Shown in pieces: positions 863 to 28,017 of a DNA stretch of 39,154 nucleotides; position 1 is the stretch's first letter; every line of letters starts with the position of its first letter. This stretch comes from Fibrobacteria bacterium. GTDB taxonomy: Bacteria; Fibrobacterota; Fibrobacteria; UBA11236. The notes below the pieces were generated by a model. It did not search any database, was not told where the DNA came from, and saw nothing but the letters and a program-made list of their open reading frames with translations. Position numbers and translations under genes: made by a program. The DNA is taken from contig JAYTHY010000032.1 in NCBI GenBank assembly GCA_043732185.1, positions 1 through 39,154 on the forward strand, in the 5' to 3' direction.

Positions 863-1384
863 ATGATATTGCCCATTTACAAATACGGCCAAAAGGTGCT
901 CCGCAAACGTGCCGTGGATGTAGGCGCCATCACACCCGGACTGGTCAAACTAGCCGAAGATATGCTGGAAACCATGTACGATTCCGCCGGAGTCGGCTTG
1001 GCTGCGCCTCAGGTAGGCAAATCTCTGCGATTAATTGTGGTGGATATTACTTCGGAAGAAGAGGAGCGAAAGCCGTATTATCTCTTTAATCCCGTGGTGA
1101 TAACCTCGAGCAATCCGGTAGGGGCAGAGGAAGGTTGCCTGTCGGTACCCGGCATTTGGGCGGAAGTGGAAAGACCGGAAACCATTACGGTAGAGGCGCG
1201 TGGGCAGGATGGGAAAAAGGTGGTCCTTAAAAACATTTCCGGGCTGCTGGCCCGCTGCATCCAACATGAAATCGATCACCTTAACGGAGTACTCTTCGTC
1301 GATAAGATTTCCGATGCGGATAGGACATTAAACGAGGTGAAACTCCAGAAACTCTCCAAGGAATCAAAATCGGCCCCAAGGTGA
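863..1384 (+). CDS. def: Peptide deformylase
   Basis: Motifs GVGLAAPQVG, EGCLS and QHEIDHLNG. Confidence 0.97.
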   Translation: MILPIYKYGQKVLRKRAVDVGAITPGLVKLAEDMLETMYDSAGVGLAAPQVGKSLRLIVVDITSEEEERKPYYLFNPVVITSSNPVGAEEGCLSVPGIWAEVERPETITVEARGQDGKKVVLKNISGLLARCIQHEIDHLNGVLFVDKISDADRTLNEVKLQKLSKESKSAPR

Positions 1385-2907
1385 TACTTTCTCTGCGCAT
1401 TAGAAGACTAGGAATCGCGCAGCTTGGGTTAGGCCTCCTCAGCTTTATTTTTTCTTGTGCTACAGCCCCAGTCAAGCCAATTGAATTACCAAGCCGCAAT
1501 TTGCCCATTTCCCTACCCTATCCTGAAGTTGAAGATACGCTGGCATGGGACCCCGATCCCATTCATGATTCTGACCGGACCGGTTCTGACACGGATTCCA
1601 CCTATGCCACCCATTCACTAGGCACTGGTGGCTGGTCCAGTCCGCCTGTTTCATCCGACTCTTCTTCATTGGTAACTTCGCCGATACCCCTTCCCGACGG
1701 AATCCGAACTCAGCCTCGCCCCAAGGATTTACCCGATAAGATTCGAGTTTTGTTAAGCCGCGATGCCCGCACTCTTTCAGTGTATTCACTCGGAGAGTTG
1801 CAAATTCTGAGCGAAAGTGTCACCCTAGAACCTAACCCTGCCCTGCGCTCCTGGACTGCCACTAAGCTTGTGACTGTGCGTGGAGCGATGCTAATCCGTC
1901 GCCAAAACCTTGGTTTTGAACTTAGCCAAAATGGCAAAACCCTAGCAACCACCACATCCACACGACTCAGATTGATTTCCGTTAATCGGTTTAACCTCAT
2001 CGATTTGAATGGCTCCGTTTACCGAGGTGGTATGCATTTGTTGGGACAAACCGATGGAGGTATTGTAGCCATCAATGTGTTGGGTGTGGAAGACTACCTT
2101 CGCGGCGTTTTGCCTTATGAACTCGGCACCGTAGACCGCGGATCCTTGGAAGCGCTAAAAGCTTTAGCAGTTGTCGCCCGCACCTATGCCTACAAACGCA
2201 TGCTACACCCGGGCAACCGCGACTTTCACGTCTTTAGCGATGTCCAGGACCAAGTTTACAAAGGCGTAAAAGGCGAATACTTGCTGAGCGACCGTGCTGT
2301 TTGGGAGACCAGAAGCATGGCCGTTTTATACCGGGATAGCTTAGCCCAATGCTATTACTTTTCAACCTGCGGTGGCCACACGGCCAGTAAACATGAGGTG
2401 TGGGGAGGTGAGAGCGTTCCCTACCTGCTTTCGCGTTCAGACAGTGATGACAAGGGCCAAGCCTTTTGTCGCGCCTCCAAGTATTCTTCCTGGACGGAGA
2501 ATTGGAATCAAATACAGCTCGCGGGAATACTCAAACGAAATCTAAAATCTGCAGGCGTAAATGATGTCCCTGGTTTTAGTCGCATCAAAAGCCTTGAGGT
2601 CACTACCCGAGCCACCTGTGGTCGTATTCGAGTTCTTAAAATCAACACGGATGGCGGGCCGATCCTGGTCAAAGGAGACAAGGTTCGCTGGGCTTTAAGA
2701 CCCTCCGCGAACGAAAATAAAATTTTGCCTAGCGCCTCGTTTGACGTGAGAATGGTCGATGGCCAGGTAACGGCCGAGGGACGGGGATTCGGACATGGAG
2801 TGGGCCTGTGCCAAATGGGAGCCATCGCCCGCGCTAAAGCGAATCAAAGTTTTAAGCAAATCATCGACGCCTATTTTACTAATGTTCAACTGGTAGAATA
2901 CCGGTAA
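1381..2907 (+). CDS. SpoIID/LytB-domain lipoprotein (peptidoglycan lytic transglycosylase family)
   Basis: 'EDYLRGVLPYE', 'LKALAVVARTYA', 'DQVYKG', 'STCGGHT' and 'GRGFGHGVGLCQMGA'. Lipobox-like 'FIFSC' followed by a Ser/Pro-rich linker. GTGA overlap with the def stop. Confidence 0.9.
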   Translation: MILSLRIRRLGIAQLGLGLLSFIFSCATAPVKPIELPSRNLPISLPYPEVEDTLAWDPDPIHDSDRTGSDTDSTYATHSLGTGGWSSPPVSSDSSSLVTSPIPLPDGIRTQPRPKDLPDKIRVLLSRDARTLSVYSLGELQILSESVTLEPNPALRSWTATKLVTVRGAMLIRRQNLGFELSQNGKTLATTTSTRLRLISVNRFNLIDLNGSVYRGGMHLLGQTDGGIVAINVLGVEDYLRGVLPYELGTVDRGSLEALKALAVVARTYAYKRMLHPGNRDFHVFSDVQDQVYKGVKGEYLLSDRAVWETRSMAVLYRDSLAQCYYFSTCGGHTASKHEVWGGESVPYLLSRSDSDDKGQAFCRASKYSSWTENWNQIQLAGILKRNLKSAGVNDVPGFSRIKSLEVTTRATCGRIRVLKINTDGGPILVKGDKVRWALRPSANENKILPSASFDVRMVDGQVTAEGRGFGHGVGLCQMGAIARAKANQSFKQIIDAYFTNVQLVEYR

Positions 2908-2924: not shown

Positions 2925-3695
2925 GTGTTGGTTATTCGAGACATGCAAGTGCAAGCGCTTGGCGAGTCGATTAGGTCGCAATTCGAAGGGCGTCTGCAAA
3001 ACCATTTAATCGAAGCCTTCCCACGCCAATGCGAATTCCTAGGTTCAACTCAGGTTCGGGAAATTATTAAGCTGGGGGTATTGCGCGCGAGTCGTTTTGG
3101 TTTTAATAGCGAAGCGGATGTCTTCTTATACCTCTGCTTAATGATGATGCTCGGCTCGTTTTTCGATGAAGATCCCCTGCTGCATTGGGTGCCACGCTAT
3201 TTGGACGCGCCCCTTAGACCAGGAATTGCTGGAGACCGTGAAAAATTATTGCAACTCCATGCTGCCACCATGGATTACCTTGACCATATAGCAGGTGACG
3301 AGAATGAGAGCCTCATTCGTGCCCTAATACGTTTTCGTGATTTCGATGTCAATGCCTTCCGAAAACTATCCGACATCGGTCTCCCTCAGGCTCTTTGCGA
3401 CATTTGTTCTTCGCTCTATCCACAGAAGGCAGCCTTTGCCGGAACCTCGTCCATCACAGCTTCATTTCAACGCGCAGTTGCTGACGGTCGAAGCCATGGA
3501 CTACTTACCGCTTATGGCCTAGGTATATATACTGCAACGGCCTTTATGTTGGGCCTAGGATTTAGGAAAGATCCTCAATTTACTTGGGCGAACCATGCGC
3601 TCAATCATCCCGTCCAAGGCAACGGTGAAATGGCTGCGACGCAACTCAATACCGAGGCCAGGAAATACCTCGCATTCGGCCTCACTGGCGGATAG
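2925..3695 (+). CDS. Hypothetical helical protein made of two ~60-aa repeats; resembles T6SS-effector-associated adaptor/chaperone-type proteins
   Basis: SD GGAGAGG at 2911-2917 and GTG start. Internal repeat 'FP...F.G...G....Y....MLG..F..DP...W' occurs twice. The function is my inference. Confidence 0.7.
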   Translation: MLVIRDMQVQALGESIRSQFEGRLQNHLIEAFPRQCEFLGSTQVREIIKLGVLRASRFGFNSEADVFLYLCLMMMLGSFFDEDPLLHWVPRYLDAPLRPGIAGDREKLLQLHAATMDYLDHIAGDENESLIRALIRFRDFDVNAFRKLSDIGLPQALCDICSSLYPQKAAFAGTSSITASFQRAVADGRSHGLLTAYGLGIYTATAFMLGLGFRKDPQFTWANHALNHPVQGNGEMAATQLNTEARKYLAFGLTGG

Positions 3696-3701
3696 TTCAT
3701 T

Positions 3702-5465
3702 ATGTGCATACCCAAAAAAGAGAAACGCAAAAACCAAACCAAGCAAGTTGTTTCTAAGCAAGAACCGGTAGTCAGCTCAAAGTGCCATCGGGATTCAGTT
3801 GAAGAAATTTCAGAAAAAACAAGTTTGGAAATCTATGATCTAACCGCAATTACCTGTGATTTGCCTATCAAACTTACAGATCGCGATTTGCACTGGAAAA
3901 CGTATTCCACCCCAGGTACTGCCAAGGTGACGGTGACCACCGATCCGAATCAAAAAGACGTGTGGGACCTTTTAAAATGGAGCGAAGGCGCTCCTGGTGC
4001 ATCTGAAAACGAAAAGCTTATAGACTTAACAACCGCTCGCGATGCAAAAATAAGTGTAACCCTCGAACAAGATATTCCAAAAACGCTAGTTGCCGATCTT
4101 CATATCTGTCAATGGCCTGTACTTGAGGTGCAGCTTATTCAATTCAATGCGATTTCTGTCGTTGAGGATGGAACGCCCCGCATCGACAAGCTCTTATCGC
4201 GCCGTTGGGAAAAAGGAAGAGCGAAACAAAATCCAATATGTTACGCAGCCGGAAGTAAGATTAAAGTAGACGCCACGTTAAACGTCACGACAGTTTCCAC
4301 CGATGATGAAGACGTAAAAATAAAAGCGGTATCCACATTGGGTGGCAAGGTTTTCACCTGGGAGGCTATTGCCAAGATACAAGCGGGAAAGAAAACAGTT
4401 GAGGTGAAGGCCATTAGTTGCGATGTCGCCTTAGCAATGGGTGTAGCCATTTACGATGCAATGACTCTCGACTGGTCCATGTTGGGCTCAGACGGCGTCA
4501 CCTGGTCGGCAATTGGCAGTACGGTGCAAACACTGTATGTGACGTTAGGCGCGCCCGTAGTCGGCACGAAAGCCTATTGGACCCTGCTTGACGTTTCCTG
4601 TCGGGCCGCGGCGGGTCAATTAACAGAAAATACCTTTGTTCCAGCCGCCTTTACCGCATTTGCAAATAGTACTGGAGATGGCAGAGGCATGGTACGCAAA
4701 GGCGACGGAGTTCGTTTGTCCTACTACAAATTTGGTGTGAAGACTTCTGGAGATCAAACCGAGCCCTCCGTATACAGTACTCGCGGCATTCTCAGTCGAC
4801 CTGACGGAACCGGGCGCTGCGGGGGATGGGCAAATCTCTTAATCCACCTTTTCAAAATCCACGGAATCTCGAGTGGTAAGCAACTCCTATTTTTCCGCCC
4901 CTACGATCTCAAACCGGATATTTACAATCGTTTTTTGGTTAAGAACTGTACATTCGCAGGTGCAGGCACGGCCAACGCAAAGGCGGGCTATACGCATAAG
5001 GGGGATACTGAGTGCATAAAGCAGAACGGCCTGGCAGGCCAGGGCAAAACGAACCCACAATTTGATTTTGGCGACCACGTTGTAGTAGAGCATGACGGAA
5101 AAATTTACGACCCATCGTATGGCGCTGGTCCAATCCTCTCACAGCGAGCCTATGAAGATGGCGCCATTGCTGGAATCGGCAGAATTACCACTGGAATCCA
5201 ATTCACCCAATTGGATGGAACAAAACAATTTATTTCTGAAGAGTGCGCGGAAGGATTTATTGCCCATACAGTTACGGCCGGTGAGACTATCGCAGATATT
5301 GCTTTGGCATATACGGTTGCTTCGGTCGTACAACTTTTCGATCATCCCTATAATCATCATTTAAAGACTACACGAGTTACTGCGGACAAAATTATGGTGG
5401 GAGATACAGTGAATATTCCACGTGATAGGACTACAAAACCTATACTTTACACCCGCTATGCATGA
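3702..5465 (+). CDS. Putative toxin/effector: papain/transglutaminase-like Cys-His-Asp domain plus C-terminal LysM
   Basis: 'GTGRCGGWANLLIHLFKIHGI' (C373) and 'DHVVVEHDGKIYDPSYG' (H459, D470). LysM 'HTVTAGETIADIALAY...HPYN..LK..R...IMVGDTVNIP' at ~aa 522-573. Beta-rich N-terminal half; no signal peptide. Confidence 0.7.
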   Translation: MCIPKKEKRKNQTKQVVSKQEPVVSSKCHRDSVEEISEKTSLEIYDLTAITCDLPIKLTDRDLHWKTYSTPGTAKVTVTTDPNQKDVWDLLKWSEGAPGASENEKLIDLTTARDAKISVTLEQDIPKTLVADLHICQWPVLEVQLIQFNAISVVEDGTPRIDKLLSRRWEKGRAKQNPICYAAGSKIKVDATLNVTTVSTDDEDVKIKAVSTLGGKVFTWEAIAKIQAGKKTVEVKAISCDVALAMGVAIYDAMTLDWSMLGSDGVTWSAIGSTVQTLYVTLGAPVVGTKAYWTLLDVSCRAAAGQLTENTFVPAAFTAFANSTGDGRGMVRKGDGVRLSYYKFGVKTSGDQTEPSVYSTRGILSRPDGTGRCGGWANLLIHLFKIHGISSGKQLLFFRPYDLKPDIYNRFLVKNCTFAGAGTANAKAGYTHKGDTECIKQNGLAGQGKTNPQFDFGDHVVVEHDGKIYDPSYGAGPILSQRAYEDGAIAGIGRITTGIQFTQLDGTKQFISEECAEGFIAHTVTAGETIADIALAYTVASVVQLFDHPYNHHLKTTRVTADKIMVGDTVNIPRDRTTKPILYTRYA

Positions 5466-5509
5466 ACTACCTAAACCAAACGTTCTTCAGTTAAGCTGCA
5501 GAGGATTAC

Positions 5510-6643
5510 ATGCTCAGATTCAGGAACTCACCTGCGGCAATTTTAGTCCTATTTTTGCTGATGGCAATAGGCTGTACTATGCCTCGATTCGCGGCGAGGA
5601 ACAAGACTATGGAATTTAAACTTAAACCCATCGCTCAAGGAAGTATTCCCGGGCTTGGGGATACCTCATTGACGGCCATAAGACTGACCAGTGTGGATGG
5701 ACCGCAAATAATTGCTGCTCATGATAACGAGGGTAAACTGGTTCTTTCGCTTTCAAACTTGATCCAAGACACCTCAACAAGCGAATTTAAATCGGTTCTT
5801 TCCACAGCCCATCCCTTGCCAGAGTTGGCAGGTATTCCCGGCCCGTTACCTGATTGGGATGCGACCATTCTTGCCGACGGATCTGCTTCGGCCGTATGGA
5901 CATTGGCGGGAAGTGCAGTTTCTTATTTGTCCTTTCGCAACTCGAAGCATGCTGAAATTGGAACTGTAAACGAGCAAACACCCTTTGGTGTCTTTGGCGC
6001 GCCCCATTTCCTTAAGGCCGATACTGTTTCCAACTTACCCATCGCAGCCATCGCATTACTTGATGGTGAAGCTCAAGTTGTGGTATTTAAACCCAATTCA
6101 GCACAGTCCTTTGCCAAACACAAAACTATTGAAGCCGAATGGCGAGGCGTCCCCGTCGATGCCAGGCTGGTGCGTAACAGATCGGGTTATTTACTTTTCG
6201 TGAAGGTACTGGCAGCGGGTGCCGAGCCTATTCATGCTGAGCGTAGAACGGGATCTGGAAAGTTACTCATGCCGGGTTATGTGGATATGATCCACCTGGA
6301 TGCTGAATTCAATAAGGTCGCAATGGGAAACGCACCGTTCGGCGACCTGTTAGTATTTGAATTTGATGCTGTTTCAACAGATCCGTTTTTGGCCGTATTT
6401 GCCACAACCGTCACGGGAGCCCATGTCGTAGTATTTGAGGAGCGAGAAGATGCTCGTGGATTGCAGGTAACATTAAGGCGAATGTCGTCCGAATGTATTT
6501 CCGCTGAACCCTTCGCTTCGCCTTCATTGATAGCCTCAAACCACATTCTCTATGCGGCGGCTATCCGCTCCGTGAATACCAAGGACGCTCAAATTGTCAT
6601 TGACAAATTGGATTTGGACCTGATCCCTTCAGATGGAAATTAA
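5510..6643 (+). CDS. Hypothetical lipoprotein (candidate immunity protein; beta-rich, possibly a propeller)
   Basis: SD AGAGGA upstream. Signal peptide II 'AAILVLFLLMAIG-C' (C22). Lies directly downstream of the putative effector. Confidence 0.7.
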   Translation: MLRFRNSPAAILVLFLLMAIGCTMPRFAARNKTMEFKLKPIAQGSIPGLGDTSLTAIRLTSVDGPQIIAAHDNEGKLVLSLSNLIQDTSTSEFKSVLSTAHPLPELAGIPGPLPDWDATILADGSASAVWTLAGSAVSYLSFRNSKHAEIGTVNEQTPFGVFGAPHFLKADTVSNLPIAAIALLDGEAQVVVFKPNSAQSFAKHKTIEAEWRGVPVDARLVRNRSGYLLFVKVLAAGAEPIHAERRTGSGKLLMPGYVDMIHLDAEFNKVAMGNAPFGDLLVFEFDAVSTDPFLAVFATTVTGAHVVVFEEREDARGLQVTLRRMSSECISAEPFASPSLIASNHILYAAAIRSVNTKDAQIVIDKLDLDLIPSDGN

Positions 6644-6653
6644 AATTGAAAAT

Positions 6654-6684
6654 GGGCGGCGCGTGGGTGATTTAACCACCGCCC
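6654..6684 (-). terminator. Possible weak hairpin terminator at the convergent lipoprotein/thiS junction
   Basis: GGGCG..GTGG / CCAC.CGCCC bulged stem overlapping the thiS stop, followed by ATTTT on the minus strand. Confidence 0.25.
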
Positions 6685-6881
6685 AAAAATTTCACGATTT
6701 CGACTTCGTCGCCATCCTTTAGAATAATACTGGCATACTCGGCTTTACTGGGTACGAGGCGGTTGAGTTCCACAACTACCATTTCCATTTTCAATTTATA
6801 GTGCTGGAGCAGCTGCAACAAATTGAGACCGGATTCCAGGTCGGCTTTTTCGCCGTTGACTTTGACTTGCATTGGGTTCAT
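6672..6881 (-). CDS. thiS: Sulfur carrier protein ThiS
   Basis: 69 aa ubiquitin-like fold: 'VKVNG', 'VVVELN', C-terminal 'GDEVEIVKFLGGG'. Start may be the second Met (6872). Confidence 0.92.
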   Translation of the reverse strand: MNPMQVKVNGEKADLESGLNLLQLLQHYKLKMEMVVVELNRLVPSKAEYASIILKDGDEVEIVKFLGGG

Positions 6882-11476: not shown

Positions 11477-12886
11477 TTAAGCCCAAAAGGGCAGATAGCG
11501 GGCGAATTTCCGGGATGACCCGACCTTTTCATCCGGCTTGATTTTTCCTGCCTCAATGGCTTGAGTAATAATTTGGGATGTGATGGCACTTTTGCTTTCG
11601 GGTAGCCGAAACCTTTCCCGCAAACTTTGGTTCGTCATCCTTTCGGACATGACCCATTTGAGGGCGCAATGTTGGTAGCAAGCTCGCACCCGATCGTCCC
11701 TATCCATTGCTTCCAGCTCCTTGGGGCCATATAAGGTCACCATGGTGCGTTTGGGAGCTACCCGAAAATCCGGGGCGGGTAATTGGAAAACCTCCACTGC
11801 ATTAATCACCTTATCCACCCCGCTGCCTTTCTCCTCACAAATCCCAAATCGCCGCATCATATCGGCCAGGCGTTCATTTCGGCTTTGGTATCCGTCTACG
11901 AATCGTTCCACCGATACCACGGGTTCACCCGGATTGGAAATCTCGATGCGATTGCTGTAGATTTCGATCATCACCGAAGCGCCTGTAATACTGAAGTCTT
12001 GGTGGATGAGGGCATTGGCCACCAATTCGCGGATGGTGATTTCCGGAACCAGTTTTACTTCCTTACGCAGTGCATTTTCGATGATTTCATTTTGCGGCAA
12101 TTGCCCCATGATGAAGCGAACCAGTCCTTGGAACCCGACGGCATAGCCTTTGGCTCCTACCTGATCTAGTTTGGTTTCCAGTTTCGAGATATCCGAATAA
12201 ACCACCACTCGAGGTGCTTTTCGGACCAGATCGGAAAAGTCTTCCAACTTTTTCGCCAGCAGGAGCGCGCCTAAGCGGCGAATGGAATACATATCGCCAT
12301 GGGCATCGATAAGCCTTTCCTGTAAAAGCCTTTCAATCACCCCCGTTTGTGTGGTGGGATACGGGAGTTTCAATAATTCAAAATAGGCCTGTGTATCTAG
12401 AAGATCAATAACCTTTTGAGCATCTAGGTCCGATTTGGAGGCTTCTTCCAACCAATTAGGCATGCCTTCGGCATGAATCCTACGGAGGACATCATCGCTC
12501 ATGAATACCAGTTCCTCGCCGGAACGCATGAAATACGCGCCGTCCAAGCTAAAAGCTGTGCCTTGTGGACGAGAAGGAATATGAAAAACCAGCACCCGCC
12601 CCTGGGGATGGATTACCACATCAATATCCACACGAAAGCCTAAGGCATGAAATATTTTTTCGGTCATTTTAACAGGATTATTGAAGGCGGCCGTTCCCAC
12701 TACAGATCGCGGGGGTTTGTCCGCCACCCCCAGCAAAAGATGACCTCCACCTTCATTGGCGATGGCCACGCAATATTGATAAAGTTTAGTGTTGTCGAAT
12801 TGGCTTTTAGCCTCTTTAAACTCGAGCCTTTGATGCTCAGTGGACGTACTCCGCCAAAGATCAATTTGTTCGACGGTGGTGCTCAA
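11477..12886 (-). CDS. Schlafen/AlbA_2 domain + RecG-C-like (HATPase_c_4) domain + C-terminal wHTH protein
   Basis: N-terminal 'EHQRLEFKE...AIANEGGGHLLLGVAD' (AlbA_2). 'RELVANALIHQD', 'IEISNPG' and 'SRNERLAD..RRFGICEEKGSG' (HATPase_c_4). The TTG start overlaps the hsdM TGA (TTGA). Confidence 0.85.
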   Translation of the reverse strand: MSTTVEQIDLWRSTSTEHQRLEFKEAKSQFDNTKLYQYCVAIANEGGGHLLLGVADKPPRSVVGTAAFNNPVKMTEKIFHALGFRVDIDVVIHPQGRVLVFHIPSRPQGTAFSLDGAYFMRSGEELVFMSDDVLRRIHAEGMPNWLEEASKSDLDAQKVIDLLDTQAYFELLKLPYPTTQTGVIERLLQERLIDAHGDMYSIRRLGALLLAKKLEDFSDLVRKAPRVVVYSDISKLETKLDQVGAKGYAVGFQGLVRFIMGQLPQNEIIENALRKEVKLVPEITIRELVANALIHQDFSITGASVMIEIYSNRIEISNPGEPVVSVERFVDGYQSRNERLADMMRRFGICEEKGSGVDKVINAVEVFQLPAPDFRVAPKRTMVTLYGPKELEAMDRDDRVRACYQHCALKWVMSERMTNQSLRERFRLPESKSAITSQIITQAIEAGKIKPDEKVGSSRKFARYLPFWA

Positions 12887-15224
12887 TGCACGGCCCCGAC
12901 GATTTCCGAAAGCAGGCCTTCAGTCTCTGCTTCCAAGGCCAGAATGTCGGCGCGGATTTCCGCCAAGGTGCGCAGGGGCTGGGGTTTGTAGAAGTGGCGG
13001 GTGAAGGACACTTCATAGCCAATCTTGGTGGCATCGGCATTGATCCAAGCATCGGAAGTATAGGGCAGAACCTCTCTTTGAATAAACGCTTCAATACCGC
13101 CTTGTTCCAGTAAGGGCACCTGCTCCGTATCCCGCAAATCGGAATCGGTATCATATTCCACCAGGCAGGTTTTACCATTCAGCTTGGCTTCGAAAAGACC
13201 GTAAAGGGAATTGGGCACGGATTTAGTTTTGCCGGGCTTGTGAATTTTAGCGATGACGGGCGCGGCTGTTTCCACCCGCCAACTTACGGCGCGTAGAATG
13301 GCTTTGAGATCCGATGCTCCCACTTTTAGATCGCGCTTGGTCAAGACGGCATCGACTTGATCGCGAAAGAGATTATGGTCTGCAAAAACTTCGCCGCCCA
13401 AATCTTTTCTCAGCGTATTAGCGATTTCAAGCAGGCGCGCGTCCCGCTCCCAGGATTTGGCATCGAGAAGCTTTTTCTTTTTCTTTTCCGGAAGCCCTTT
13501 TTTGGTTGCACCTTCTTCGCCTTCACCCTCTTCTTCCCCATCATTCCATTCCGCCAATTTTTTTTCCAATGCCTCGCGAATTCCGGCAAAGTCATTGAAA
13601 AGAGATTCGCCCATTTCTTCATAAAGTTGGGAACGGATATCTTCATCGCCCGATAAAAATCGCAGAGATTCGATGGCCTTCACGGAAAGCTGGCTATGCA
13701 GGCGCAGGGGCCTTTCGACCGTGACCTTCCAATAACCAAAGGCAGCATTGGGGAAAATCTTGGACTGTTCATTTTCCTTAAAACCTTGATGGGTTTCACA
13801 AATGCGGCGGATATCTTCCTCGGAGAGTTCGCAATTTTTCTTACCTAGGTTCTTGCGCAGGGGTTTGTACCATTGCGAGGCATCGATGAGCTGCACCTTG
13901 CCTTTCCGATGGGCGGGCTTACGGTTGGTGAGCACCCAGATATAGGTGGCGATGCCGGTATTGTAAAAGAGGTTCAGAGGCAATGCAATAATCGCTTCCA
14001 ACCAATCACTTTCGATGAGCCAACGACGGATATTGCTCTCACCTTGCCCGGCGTCACCGGTGAACAGGGAGGAGCCATTATGCACTTCGGCGATACGGCT
14101 GCCGAGCAAGGTTTTATGGTTCATTTTGGAAGCCATATTAGCTAGGAAAAGCATCTGACCATCGCTGGAGCGCGTGACTAGGGAATAGTCCTCCTCGGTT
14201 CCGTGGCTGAACTTGAAGCGCGGATCGCGCATACCCTCCTTGCCGCCCATGGAATCAAGATCCTTTTTCCAGCTTTTGCCATAAGGAGGATTGGCCAGCA
14301 TGAAGTCGAATTCCTTGGCGGGAAAAGCATCATGCGATAAGGTGGAATGTTCCGCGCCCCCGATAATATGGTCGGCACTGTCCCCTTCGCCTTTGAGGAG
14401 CATATCGGCTTTGCAAATGGCATAGGTTTCCGGATTTATCTCCTGGCCGTAAAGGTGCGTGACCACCTGCTTCCCGCGTGCTTCGGTCAATCCCTTCAGA
14501 CGCTCTTCAGCCACGGTGAGCATGCCTCCCGTACCGCAGGCGCAATCATAGAGCAGGTAAGATCCGGATTGCACCGCATCGGCGATAGCAGGAAGATTAG
14601 GTCCGCCATCAGGCGCACGGCGTCGCGCGGAGTCCAATGTTCGCCCGCTTCTTCATTGTTTTCTTCGTTGAATTTACGGACCAGCTCTTCGAATACGGTG
14701 CCCATGGCATGGTTGTCCATGGCAGGATGCTTAACCGAACCATCGCCGTTGAGAACCGGATTGGGACTGAGGTTGATATCGGGATTGAGGAATTTTTCGA
14801 TCAAGGTGCCAATGGCATCGGCTTTGGACAGGGTCGAGATCTGGTTCCGGAATTTGAAATTTTCCAGAATATCCTGCACGTTTTCGGAAAAGCCGTCGAG
14901 GTAGTCGTTGAAGTCCGCCAGCAATTGTTGTTGGCTGGAGCGGGCCTTGAGATCGCGTAGGGTGAACTTGGAGGTATTGTAGAAGGCTTGACCGGCGGCT
15001 TTGCATAGGGCAGCCCGCTGTTCCGTGATCGAAGCGGCATCGAGCATCGTTTTGGTTTCCAGAACCGCATTTTTAGTCGGTTCCAGAACCGCATCCAAGC
15101 GGCGCAAAACGCACATGGGTAGGATGACATCAGGATATTTACCACGTCTGAAAAGATCCCGGAGCACATCGTCTGCAATACCCCAGATAAACGAGACTAT
15201 TTTATTGTGCGCAGCCTGATCCAT
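12883..15224 (-). pseudogene. hsdM: Type I N6-adenine methyltransferase subunit, split by a 1-bp deletion near 14588 (real lesion or sequencing error)
   Basis: 5' part has 'FIWGIADDVLRD' and 'AGEHWTPRDAV'; 3' part has 'YDCACGTGGML' and 'ANPPY'. Minus strand reads TTC CTG CT ATC GCC GAT; one extra base gives F-L-P-I-A-D and a single 780-aa ORF (2342+1 = 2343 bp). Confidence 0.9.
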
Positions 15225-15420
15225 GGTCAAATTCCGATCAATTTATTGATAATAATGATATGGGAATCGGCCAATTCCAGGGCTTATTCCAATCCCTAAA
15301 AGTTAGTTATTGCGCCAGCTTGTCTGAGCCCACATAGATGCGGCGCCGAATGCCCTGCCAGATGATGAAGCCGCCCGGCTTTTTCCTATATTCCTTAAAA
15401 ACCTACCCTGGAAATATTGC

Positions 15421-24390: not shown

Positions 24391-27300
24391 ATGCAAAAAA
24401 CCATATTCCACTTGGCTTATGTCCTATTTGTAGCCGCAATTACTTTTGGTTATTCCACTTCCCAAGCGGAAGCGTTGCACACATTGGAAACAGCCCACTA
24501 TCGCATTGCTTTTCCAAAAAAATATGAGCAAATGGGCGGTGAGATTTTAGAAATTGCGGAAAAAGTTTGGCCGACTTTGGCAAAAGCCTACGACAGCTAC
24601 GAACATTATGAAACCATCGACATCCTTATCACCGATGACGGAGATGATGCGAATGGGTTCGCCATTTACAATTTTTCCAGAGTGGCCATTTTCGCCCCGC
24701 ATATGGATTGGGTGATGCGCAATCGCCACACTTGGCTTCGCAATGTAGTGACGCATGAGTTGGCGCATATTTTCACATTACGCCGGGCAGCATGGCTTTC
24801 TCCCGTCGACCAGGTTGATATCTATGGCGGCACTTACAATTACAGCGATCGGATCAATTACTCGTTTCACCTGCCTTGGATTCCTTTGGTTGCGCCCACC
24901 TGGTACATTGAAGGCATTGCCCAATTTGAAGCCGCACAAAACGGCAACGACTCGTGGGATTCGCAGCGGGATATGGTGCTGCGCGATGCCTACTTGACAG
25001 GCACCTTACCGACTCTTGATTTTATCGAAACATTTCAAAGCGATGAGGACTGGACGCAAAGCGAACGCTGCTATAATACCGGCTTCGGATTCCTACTGTA
25101 TCTGAAAAATCGCTTTGGGGTGGACAAGGTGCGTGAACTTGCAAAACCCAAGCCCATTTTCAACTTCTCCTATTCAGTCCGCAAAGCTTTCGGAAAAGAA
25201 CTTCCAGATCTATTTGAAGACTTCCGCCGTTCTCTAGTGGAACGCTACGCGGACTTCAAAGACTTTTCCGTCGACTCTCTAGCCGATAGTGAAATGAAGG
25301 GTGGATACCAACAAAACCTGGCCCTCTCATCGGATGGGAGATTTATGGCCTGGCTCGGCAATGGCGAGAATCGCCGCGCCCCATTAAATTGGATTTTCTG
25401 GAAAGAAATAGGATCCGGAAAAATCAATAAATCGGCAAGCACGGTTGATAAGCCTCAAGGACTTACCGCTCCCGTGAACACTGGTCTTAATCAAACTCAG
25501 CAATATCATTTAAAAGCAGCGCCGACTCTAGCATCGGGTTTAAATGGGGACTACGGTTCCATGTCCGTATTTTCTGGTCAACGGATGGGAAATCCTTTGT
25601 TGGGACTGGCGAGAAATATTATCCCGAACATTCAACGGCGCGCCATATCTAGAACGAATAGCCCAACCAAAGCAGTTTTGCCATCTGATGTAGAGCGGAG
25701 CGATGAAGCCGGCTCATCAGGACTCGAATTCAACCATGACAATTCAAAACTGCTCACCACTCGCCGGGATAAATACGCGGCTTATACGGATATTTGGGAA
25801 TATGACTTTCGTTCCAAAGAAGATGAAGAAGACAAATGGCATCGCCTTACTTGGGAAATCCGAGCAGCATACCCCAGTTATCATCCCACTAAAAACCTGA
25901 TTGTTTATACTTCAAAGTCGTATGGAACCAGCAATCTTAGGTTATTGGATTCGACTGGCCAGGGGTTTATACTCACAAATTTTACCGACGGGGAGCAGAT
26001 TTACAATCCCCGCTTTAATGGAAAAGGCGATTCAATTTATTTCACACTTGGCATTGAAGACAAAGAAGCCATCGTGTCCATCAATGCCGGAACCCCTGCC
26101 TTTGATCCCTTCTTAGCCCTTAGAGATTCCGCCGTTTTTCCAGATTCAAGTTACCTGGCCAAATCTCAACGACTCACCTTTATCACTCCAATGAAGCACG
26201 GGTCCATTCGCAACATTCGATTTTCCAATGACACTCTTTTTTGGTCCTCTAACTCGGAAGACAGCTTGAATAGTGTGTACGATATCTATGCCAAACTCCC
26301 CCAGGATTCAGCCGTTTACCGTGCCACACAGGTTGCGGGTCAAGCCTTGGAAGCACTTCCCCACAATGGAACGCTGTATTATCAGGGATATCATAGACAG
26401 AAATTTCAAATTTTTAAACAGACTTTAGCCCTCACGAGAACCAAGAATATTCTGTATTCAGTGACTGACTCGCTCCCAACTTTTAAGCCAAAGCCTCTTG
26501 AGTATTCCAAGGCTTTTGATACCAGCACCTACTACGGGACCAAGGTCGCCACAGAAATAATTCCCTACCTCGCCGTGCAGCCGCAGTTTTTAAGTGGGGA
26601 TCGCTCCTTTACGGATCTCGCATTAGGCGTCAACGTGACCATGGGAGAAGCTTACGGAGGCTGGATGCAAAGTGTGGGTGGTGCAATAACCAAACGAGCC
26701 AATTTGAAAGATCCGATGAATTACCAATTGTCCTATTCGGGATTTCTCACTTCCACCTCTATTCGACATACCACTTTTGACTGGTCTCCGGCATTGTATT
26801 ATGGCCTTTTTCATGATGTGCTTCAATTTAATGATCGTAGAGATGTCAATGATGGGTTCGTGATTGGTTCCGACTCCATTTCAGTCAAAGGAAATCAAAG
26901 CGCACGCAGCCAATTCAGCCGTTATGCCGCTTCCGTTGCCTCTCCACTCCCCTATGGACTTCTCATTGACGCAAGCTTTTGGACTCAATCCATCACTGAA
27001 ATCGACAATCAAGCCATTGTCTTTCATAATTTCACCACCAATGAAAACTTTACGCAGAAGCAAGAAGCCACAAGCCTATCCGACGCCCTGCAACATCGAC
27101 ATTTCAACACGGGTTTAAACTGGTCTTGGTCCAAAGGAATGTGGGGCACCTACTTGCCTACAGGCGGATGGATAAGCACCGGGATTCACAAATGGTGGGC
27201 AACCTATGAAACTGGTGCTTTTACAACTTTAGACTCAGCGACCAGTAACCAGCTCATCATGGAGGGGAATATCGCTCCCAGGGGCATTTTACCATTGGCG

Positions 27301-28017
27301 AAATTTGAGCCCTGGAATTTTGATATTGCCGGCGGAGGCCTGTTTTCATTAGGCAAAACCTTTACCCTCTTTGCAAATGTCGAGGCTTCCGCCTTTTTAA
27401 ATAAAGAACCTATGTCAACGGATTCGGTGCAAGTCACACCCAATAATTTTACCACAGTTGAAAATCTGGACGATGGATTATGGGTCATGGCCAATCGAAT
27501 TGGTTATTTCAGATTGCACGGTTATCCCTATAACTTCAAGTATCGCGGACGACAAATCATGGAAGGCTCTTCCATGGTCTACGGACAATTTGGGATTCAA
27601 ATCCCAATTAAAGTTGGATTATTTATTCCTGATTTACCCACAAGCTCGCTTAAACAATTCCTTATTTCAGGCATTGGAGAATGGGGTACGACCTTAAACT
27701 CCGCGCCGGATAAAATCTATCGCAGCCTTGAGGAAGGGCAACATCATCTGCTCTTGGACTTTGGGCTTAAAGCCTCCATGAATTTTAACCTGTATCACCA
27801 GATTCCATTCACTCTGTATGCCCAAGCCTTTGTTCCCTTTAATGAACTCAAAGCCGAAAATTTATACTGGGATGACTTTTCCCATACAGGGAGACCCAAT
27901 CCGGATGGTTCAGCGAGTCCGGAACAAATCAGGAATGCCGGTCAAGATCGGGCCACATATATCAATCAAGTCAAAGACCCACGTTACTTCGTTGGTTTCA
28001 ATCTCGGCATTTTCTAG
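24391..28017 (+). CDS. Large outer-membrane protein: N-terminal gluzincin/peptidase MA-like domain, TolB-like beta-propeller, C-terminal beta-barrel
   Basis: Signal peptide ('...SQA-EA'). 'VTHELAH' plus downstream 'WYIEGIAQF'. PD40-like blades ('ALSSDGRFMAW', 'YPSYHP', 'YNPRFNGKGDSIYF'). Amphipathic strands and terminal 'YFVGFNLGIF'. Confidence 0.75.
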   Translation: MQKTIFHLAYVLFVAAITFGYSTSQAEALHTLETAHYRIAFPKKYEQMGGEILEIAEKVWPTLAKAYDSYEHYETIDILITDDGDDANGFAIYNFSRVAIFAPHMDWVMRNRHTWLRNVVTHELAHIFTLRRAAWLSPVDQVDIYGGTYNYSDRINYSFHLPWIPLVAPTWYIEGIAQFEAAQNGNDSWDSQRDMVLRDAYLTGTLPTLDFIETFQSDEDWTQSERCYNTGFGFLLYLKNRFGVDKVRELAKPKPIFNFSYSVRKAFGKELPDLFEDFRRSLVERYADFKDFSVDSLADSEMKGGYQQNLALSSDGRFMAWLGNGENRRAPLNWIFWKEIGSGKINKSASTVDKPQGLTAPVNTGLNQTQQYHLKAAPTLASGLNGDYGSMSVFSGQRMGNPLLGLARNIIPNIQRRAISRTNSPTKAVLPSDVERSDEAGSSGLEFNHDNSKLLTTRRDKYAAYTDIWEYDFRSKEDEEDKWHRLTWEIRAAYPSYHPTKNLIVYTSKSYGTSNLRLLDSTGQGFILTNFTDGEQIYNPRFNGKGDSIYFTLGIEDKEAIVSINAGTPAFDPFLALRDSAVFPDSSYLAKSQRLTFITPMKHGSIRNIRFSNDTLFWSSNSEDSLNSVYDIYAKLPQDSAVYRATQVAGQALEALPHNGTLYYQGYHRQKFQIFKQTLALTRTKNILYSVTDSLPTFKPKPLEYSKAFDTSTYYGTKVATEIIPYLAVQPQFLSGDRSFTDLALGVNVTMGEAYGGWMQSVGGAITKRANLKDPMNYQLSYSGFLTSTSIRHTTFDWSPALYYGLFHDVLQFNDRRDVNDGFVIGSDSISVKGNQSARSQFSRYAASVASPLPYGLLIDASFWTQSITEIDNQAIVFHNFTTNENFTQKQEATSLSDALQHRHFNTGLNWSWSKGMWGTYLPTGGWISTGIHKWWATYETGAFTTLDSATSNQLIMEGNIAPRGILPLAKFEPWNFDIAGGGLFSLGKTFTLFANVEASAFLNKEPMSTDSVQVTPNNFTTVENLDDGLWVMANRIGYFRLHGYPYNFKYRGRQIMEGSSMVYGQFGIQIPIKVGLFIPDLPTSSLKQFLISGIGEWGTTLNSAPDKIYRSLEEGQHHLLLDFGLKASMNFNLYHQIPFTLYAQAFVPFNELKAENLYWDDFSHTGRPNPDGSASPEQIRNAGQDRATYINQVKDPRYFVGFNLGIF

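Follow-up and report, generated by a model that had tools for sequence, protein, structure and literature searches.

The window analysed here is a stretch of 39,154 nucleotides from a Fibrobacteria bacterium (contig JAYTHY010000032.1 of assembly GCA_043732185.1), and the element in question is a cassette of three genes, called A, B and C below, which is interpreted as a putative cargo module of a type VI secretion system (T6SS). Gene A (positions 2925-3695, plus strand, 256 aa; GTG start with GGAGAGG upstream) would encode the half of a split adaptor that binds the effector, gene B (3702-5465, plus strand, 587 aa) a signal-less putative T6SS effector, and gene C (5510-6643, plus strand, 377 aa) a putative immunity protein. 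The cassette is flanked on the left by spoIID/lytB (1381-2907, plus strand), which lies outside the module, and on the right by the convergent thiS (6672-6881, minus strand). The intergenic gaps are 6 nt between A and B and 44 nt between B and C, and the open reading frame (ORF) coordinates thus agree with an earlier reading made from the DNA letters alone (the sequence-only reading), which had described three same-strand genes between spoIID and thiS. The same reading had noted the lack of vgrG, PAAR and hcp, and none was found among the 28 window proteins scanned. None of the three genes belongs to a family in Pfam, PHROGs or PADLOC; NCBIfam gave one match below the cut-off for B and nothing else. 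The ESM Atlas returned only unnamed clusters for A (0.96) and for C (0.88, taken as a lead only), and nothing credible came from searching PDB sequences with the A, B and C profiles; the matches of A to Vpu and to designed proteins in that search were judged to be chance.

The nearest relatives are metagenome-assembled genomes (MAGs) of Fibrobacteria at 96-99% identity. In the following, G000 denotes the host genome, C38, C98 and C129 its contigs, L numbers the fetched loci and P numbers relatives of B. Among 15 genomes of the genus, spoIID is followed by A and B in three (G000, G223 and G224) and stands directly against thiS in eight, including the unpublished G213; two others have different short inserts and two have no thiS within 1.5 kb of spoIID. 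Because A and B follow spoIID in so few congeners and thiS directly abuts spoIID in eight, the cassette is regarded as an accessory insertion and, judged by this gene order, a recent one. Neither flanking repeats nor a target-site duplication was observed around it, and promoter and terminator counts were the same as in shuffles. Among the sequencing runs listed, none of RNA contained the cassette. The neighbourhoods were studied in 76 loci (19 from genomes and 57 from metagenomes) retrieved by motifs of the close family of B, which collapse to 60 groups at 85% identity. Adjacency was counted where 900 nt or more of flanking DNA was available, downstream of B for C (66 loci) and upstream of B for A (53 loci). 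A C-family gene follows B in 60/66 loci and an A-family gene precedes it in 37/53; conservation thus indicates that A, B and C are real genes of a conserved module. Of the six loci without C after B, four are fragments or weak matches, in one the pair lies on the opposite strand, and in the last a single frame contains remnants of B and C.

B has no signal peptide. Its AlphaFold2 model (predicted local distance difference test, pLDDT, 93) consists of a disordered, Cys-containing leader, an immunoglobulin (Ig)-like domain (residues 43-137), a beta-sandwich (139-281), a transglutaminase-like core (282 to about 518) and an accessory LysM (520-574; positions 5259-5423, plus strand), which superposes on LysM with Z 7.4 and a root-mean-square deviation (rmsd) of 1.0 over 46 residues. 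The predicted catalytic residues, i.e., Cys373 in GRCGGW (4818-4820), His459 (5076-5078) and Asp470 in YDPSYG (5109-5111), all on the plus strand, are kept in 121, 120 and 117 of the 122 aligned B sequences, respectively, and the Cys, His, Asp order of a papain-like core was found in both alignment and fold comparison. A signal-less 587-aa protein with a catalytic triad and LysM had been proposed beforehand, and this description stands. When the full-length model was compared by Foldseek, transglutaminase 3 was the top match (E 7e-6), and sandwich plus core matched the animal enzymes TG2, TG3 and FXIII at Z 8-9 and rmsd 6-7. The core folded alone (pLDDT 96) matched best with TglA (9crn; Z 9.5, rmsd 5.6, 130 aligned residues), followed by the transglutaminase (TGase) 4xz7 (Z 7.7), LapG (7.4), PeiP (6.5), TG3 (6.4) and PeiW (6.3). 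Weak Transglut_core matches were present in the relatives P0007, P0104 and P0109. B is thus predicted to be a cysteine enzyme (Cys-His-Asp) of the transglutaminase-like superfamily. Membership in the Tae/NlpC-P60 amidases is unlikely, with no Pfam NlpC/P60 match and a Z of 3.0 for the MepS-containing 8xud versus 9.5 for TglA, and a papain-like ancestry may be common to both. The family is widespread (1,471 matches at E<=0.001 among 1.84 billion representatives, taken at 50% identity) and includes little-studied phyla, e.g., Fibrobacterota and Acidobacteriota.

The long form of C has a hydrophobic signal, and its lipobox-like sequence, A-I-G-C22 (Cys22 at 5573-5575), is a relaxed one. The lipoprotein assignment made earlier may apply to this protein and does not extend to the whole family: by eye, a lipobox is retained in a minority of the homologues, the majority having an ordinary Sec- or Tat-like signal. 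An interaction between effector and lipoprotein, also expected from the sequence-only reading, was predicted by the complex model of B (137-587) and C (30-377), which scored 0.85 versus 0.00 for the best of three controls. A score of 0.85 was reached by 116/157 solved complexes and 2/215 mismatched pairs, counts that serve as a rough guide only, own alignments having been used for B and C. At least 87% of the contacts agree between runs, the partners have pLDDT of at least 83, and recall of a similar complex is less likely because no PDB sequence resembles the profile of B or C. The tightest contacts are those of C 134-136 with B 372-374 and 458-460, two stretches that contain the catalytic Cys and His. 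The Gly134-Ser135-Ala136 loop of C (5909-5917, plus strand) is modelled against Cys373 and His459, and among 52 sequences its positions are G in 42, S or G in 51 and A in 47. The distances of B and C also covary (Mantel rho 0.48), which kinship alone could produce. The model supports the view that C is an immunity protein blocking the active site of B.

C probably has a second start. Met34, with the ribosome-binding site (RBS) GAGGA at 5596 and ATG at 5609 (5596-5611, plus strand), was compared in 53 C ORFs, from which 14 near-duplicate or fragmentary loci and the second C of L074 were left out. A Met occurs 17-31 residues ahead of the first conserved Leu in 50/53, at exactly 20 or 25 residues in 35, while the Met frequency in the C bodies is 1.3%; a hydrophobic segment precedes the internal Met in 48/53. 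Pairing was calculated with the anti-Shine-Dalgarno string of the 16S tail. It reached -5 kcal/mol or lower at 26/48 conserved Mets versus 57/437 other internal Mets (p 1.5e-9) and beat synonymous shuffles in 40/47 (p 9e-9), both p-values being overstated by the relatedness of the homologues. L018 and L048 encode a signal-less short C only; in L074 there are separate genes for a signal-less C and for a C with a lipobox. These patterns imply that C could be made as an exported and a signal-less cytoplasmic form from two starts, the second of them conserved. A cytoplasmic form would mean either that B harms the cytoplasm or that C also chaperones B there, and it weakens the cell wall as the only target, as the sequence-only reading had it. 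The cell wall remains plausible as a target of B; a protein target is at least as likely because of the conserved, predicted cytoplasmic isoform.

A consists of two helical repeats (hidden Markov model matches 2-124 and 133-254), so the cytoplasmic helical repeat protein described before can now be specified further. A itself has no match to PF13503, the N-lobe of DUF4123, which in the host lies on contig C38. In five of the 76 loci (L016, L041, L047, L058 and L059) the A repeat forms the C-terminal part of DUF4123 proteins; these fusions fall into three independent groups, and Pfam confirmed DUF4123 in L016, L047 and L059. Furthermore, a short DUF4123 gene lies directly before A in eight loci (L012, L014, L033/34, L050, L052, L057 and L060). 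DUF4123 adaptors are described as bipartite, the N-lobe being conserved and binding a helix-turn-helix tail on VgrG and the C-lobe being helical and variable and binding the effector, with TecT/co-TecT of Pseudomonas aeruginosa as a split case (available text of PMC11582642). We infer that A is a stand-alone, effector-binding C-lobe of a split DUF4123 adaptor with a co-TecT-like role. In six loci, the gene behind an A-family gene encodes an unrelated protein instead. By eye, the proteins behind A, including B, have a Cys-containing low-complexity leader, and several B homologues without a neighbouring A have no such leader; A may thus read the leader of B. In L062 (2436-4464), which has no A, the B homologue begins with the MLTIRxxQM motif of A directly after DUF4123, which suggests that this motif docks on the DUF4123 N-lobe. 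In addition, an unknown protein of 577 aa, encoded downstream of vgrG, begins with a fused A-like domain (L017:989-2719).

A candidate for the delivery machinery, placed elsewhere in the genome by the sequence-only reading, was indeed found there. G000 has genes for TssA, B, C, E, F, G, K, L and M (the search did not extend to TssH and TssJ), two Hcp, one VgrG, one PAAR, DUF2169 and one DUF4123. A second A-B-C cassette lies on contig C129 (L001:9627-12886), with a single-repeat A (116 aa), a B without LysM at 29% identity and a C that shares the internal Met and its RBS. The only DUF4123 of the genome, on C38, has 183 aa and no C-lobe. It is followed by a 176-aa gene ending in a helix-CxxC tail, as found on PAAR or VgrG of other loci, whereas the VgrG and PAAR of G000 have no such tail. 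This tail carrier (L008:9620-10688) has counterparts in about 15 related loci, where unnamed genes of 150-200 aa stand beside DUF4123; the architecture is a small N-terminal domain, a Pro/Ala linker and the loading tail. By analogy, the C38 carrier may act like a RIX-type secreted adaptor, and both cassettes could be loaded in trans through a relay of tail carrier, DUF4123 N-lobe, A and the leader of B. Contig C129 carries another orphan pair (L001:2085-4778), in which an Imm72 gene comes after a gene for a signal-less protein of 601 aa. Contig C98 (L007:7302-12363) has vgrG, DUF2169 and a PAAR whose fused C-terminal domain is of the BPSL0067 family; further unknown genes come after these, one of them with PG_binding_1.

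Across the neighbourhood set, DUF4123 occurs in 24/76 loci, VgrG, PAAR, Hcp, Tss or DUF2169 in 9/76 and any T6SS marker in 27/76, the genes linked to B loci being DUF4123, PAAR, VgrG, TssG and Hcp. Among the 19 genomes that carry B, TssC was found in 17 and DUF4123 in 15. T6SSs are common in the host phylum, judging by TssC in 87/201 sampled genomes; B matched in 6/201 (three strongly), and all six have TssC. Pfam was run on 62 of the 150 B relatives listed; in one of them, P0123, a complete VgrG carries the sandwich and core of B at its C-terminus. The neighbourhood survey that had been proposed thus associates the genes with each other and with secretion genes. Likewise, the suggested order of adaptor, effector and immunity protein and the suggested T6SS delivery are upheld by the A-DUF4123 fusions, the B-VgrG fusion, the conserved gene order, the T6SS genes of the host genome and the B-C model with its blocked active site. 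Taken with the co-occurrence and conservation observed and the folds modelled, these results make it very probable that the cassette is an orphan T6SS cargo module, in which A is one half of an adaptor, B the injected enzyme and C its cognate immunity protein.

Several observations weigh against this interpretation. An adjacent A is absent in 16/53 loci, and no T6SS marker occurs in the available DNA of 49/76 loci (38 of the 60 non-redundant groups). The counts are not independent, since the loci are phylogenetically related and were picked by close-family motifs. Two of the 19 genomes with B gave no TssC match, although MAGs may be incomplete. Several distant B relatives contain Ig, Calx-beta, cadherin or dockerin domains, some with a signal-like start, and with such Sec signals or adhesin-type domains the core is not exclusive to T6SS. 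Finally, the fold comparison that the sequence-only reading had recommended succeeded in part: the full-length protein pointed to transglutaminase 3, whereas Foldseek with the core alone gave no match at E<=0.001. The middling fold scores place B, as a model-based assignment, in a superfamily and do not specify its reaction.

In the proposed mechanism, A would capture B through its leader, the shared DUF4123 N-lobe and the tail carrier would tether A and B to the spike, and the T6SS would inject B into neighbouring bacteria, where the Cys-His-Asp core would attack amide or isopeptide bonds. C would insert its Gly-Ser-Ala loop into the active site of B and would protect both periplasm and cytoplasm. 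For the substrate, proteins, which would be cleaved, deamidated or cross-linked mainly in the envelope via LysM and with harm also in the cytoplasm, have a chance that we put a little short of even; peptidoglycan as the only substrate is possible and somewhat doubtful. LapG and the transglutaminases are protein-directed enzymes, and TglA, 4xz7 and LapG outrank PeiP and PeiW among the core matches. PeiP and PeiW, which cut pseudomurein, nevertheless appear there, and LysM is present in 47/66 B loci and is joined by PG_binding_1 in P0098. With the hydrophobic leader in 48 of the 53 C ORFs, these features would fit an alternative with the same delivery, in which B is a peptidoglycan endo-isopeptidase or amidase (cutting gamma-D-Glu-meso-diaminopimelate or cross-links) and cytoplasmic C is only a folding or activating chaperone, a role with a precedent in the one proposed for Tli in the available text on that protein. 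This alternative appears rather unlikely. LysM is absent in 19/66 loci and can serve VgrG loading according to the available text of PMC10673891, and two loci encode the signal-less C alone.

The similarity of the sandwich-plus-core layout to TG2, TG3 and FXIII and the exported, adhesin-bearing distant relatives could also suggest a secreted enzyme that modifies surfaces or acts against eukaryotes, with C as a regulator holding B latent. We regard this as improbable, since a predicted active-site inhibitor that is dedicated, encoded downstream and equipped with an export signal, the patchy insertion among congeners and the links to DUF4123, VgrG and PAAR are typical of antibacterial effector-immunity pairs. 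Delivery by an extracellular contractile injection system (eCIS), for which a transglutaminase-like toxin, EAT14, has been described (available text of PMC11297309), seems most improbable. G000 has one sheath match, one VgrG match and T6SS membrane-complex genes, no eCIS-specific search having been made, and the genes linked to B loci are those of T6SS. As for the preferred T6SS cargo module, its most specific form, i.e., an antibacterial toxin family that cross-links or deamidates proteins, with an animal-transglutaminase-like layout, dual-start immunity and a CxxC/CxxU trans relay (the CxxU tails are considered below), is distinctly unlikely to be right in every part.

The module would operate in the manner of the split-adaptor T6SS cargo modules already known, and its families appear to be undescribed. 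As in TecT/co-TecT/TseT/TsiT (available text of PMC11582642), N-lobe and C-lobe are on separate genes, followed by effector and immunity protein. Unlike in co-TecT, the C-lobe encoded by A is duplicated and orphaned from its N-lobe, and the likeness drawn here is one of role; TseT is a DNase, whereas B is transglutaminase-like. In the available text of PMC11582642 the TecT-type N-lobe binds a tail with a Cys pair on VgrG or PAAR, while here the tail is on a small stand-alone protein. A small protein that replaces VgrG/PAAR as bearer of a C-terminal loading platform is known from RIX, of which the carrier may be a functional analogue; the available text of PMC10435454 places RIX in Vibrionaceae with TTR-type platforms. 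B shares the Cys-His-Asp core with TglA, 4xz7, LapG, PeiP/PeiW and TG2/TG3/FXIII, and with the animal enzymes also the beta-sandwich-plus-core layout. It differs from these proteins by an identity of 10-18%, long insertions and the lack of a PDB sequence match, and by having Ig spacers, a putative loading leader, LysM and a predicted dedicated inhibitor. Compared by description, Tox-TGase (PMC3482391) and EAT14 (PMC11297309), as far as the available texts go, are the toxin concepts closest to B, being likewise transglutaminase-like domains in conflict systems; the Tox-TGase table row of the former lists type II and type III secretion systems and PVC, with no T6SS and no immunity protein, and EAT14 has DUF4157 and another triad order (C298, D397, H410). 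Tle/Tli of Enterobacter cloacae resembles C in that alternative starts after the signal give a cytosolic pool of the immunity lipoprotein Tli (available text of 10.1101/2023.03.28.534661). The proteins are unrelated, and unlike in Tli the second start of C is fixed in position across about 50 diverse homologues, with L074 carrying the two forms as two genes. The literature covered, supplements excepted, held no description of the B family, of a transglutaminase-like T6SS effector-immunity pair or of selenocysteine in T6SS tails; supplementary sets that could contain the A, B or C families are the Salmonella STox tables, the PMC11148199 effector clusters and dbVgrG.

In related loci, the loading tail has a further peculiarity, which is absent from the window itself. 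In 13/21 tail or PAAR ORFs inspected (L014, L016, L030, L041, L046, L047, L050, L060, L065, L067, L068, L071 and L074), the tail ends in Cxx-TGA, with TGA at the place of the second Cys of CxxC. All 13 stops are TGA, which makes up 56% of the other stops in the same loci. A GC hairpin with a GU loop lies 16-22 nt downstream in 10/13 versus 8/290 other TGA-ended ORFs by a rule formulated after these tails had been seen, and L131, a tail gene found blind, has the same hairpin. In L065 (3573-5642), L067 (159-2138) and L068 (7074-9092), PAAR and a B homologue form one frame split by a single TGA with the hairpin, which makes them candidates for PAAR-Sec-effector read-through fusions, Sec here meaning selenocysteine. 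The hairpin resembles the selenocysteine insertion sequence (SECIS) of E. coli fdhF. The selA gene is present in the three Cxx-TGA genomes checked and was not found in G000, whose tail is of the Cys form; the selA-positive G004 and G009 nonetheless have Cys tails. Rfam gave no SECIS match, a strict PAAR-type pattern occurred in 0/401 genomes, and most matches of a loose pattern were due to chance, only one of the 30 loci fetched being a tail gene. The Cxx-TGA tails are probably selenocysteine (CxxU) tails with a SECIS-like hairpin. If this is true, a T6SS component would be added to the bacterial selenoproteome. The exchange of CxxC and Cxx-TGA also bears on a question raised in the available text of PMC11582642, namely whether release of the effector is triggered by redox changes of the Cys pair.

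Based on these results, three unnamed protein families gain testable roles. The fixed second start in C makes compartment-specific immunity directly testable, and the A domain could serve as a marker for more orphan effectors because it is also found before unrelated proteins.

Elsewhere in the window, a type I hsdM gene at 12883-15230 (minus strand) is broken near 14500-14640 into two overlapping frames, by a frameshift or an assembly error, and the restriction-modification cluster contains a Schlafen AlbA_2/RecG-like gene. A 1208-aa exported protein at 24391-28017 (plus strand) has no Pfam match, a HELAH zinc-peptidase-like motif near its N-terminus and two partial paralogues in the host genome.

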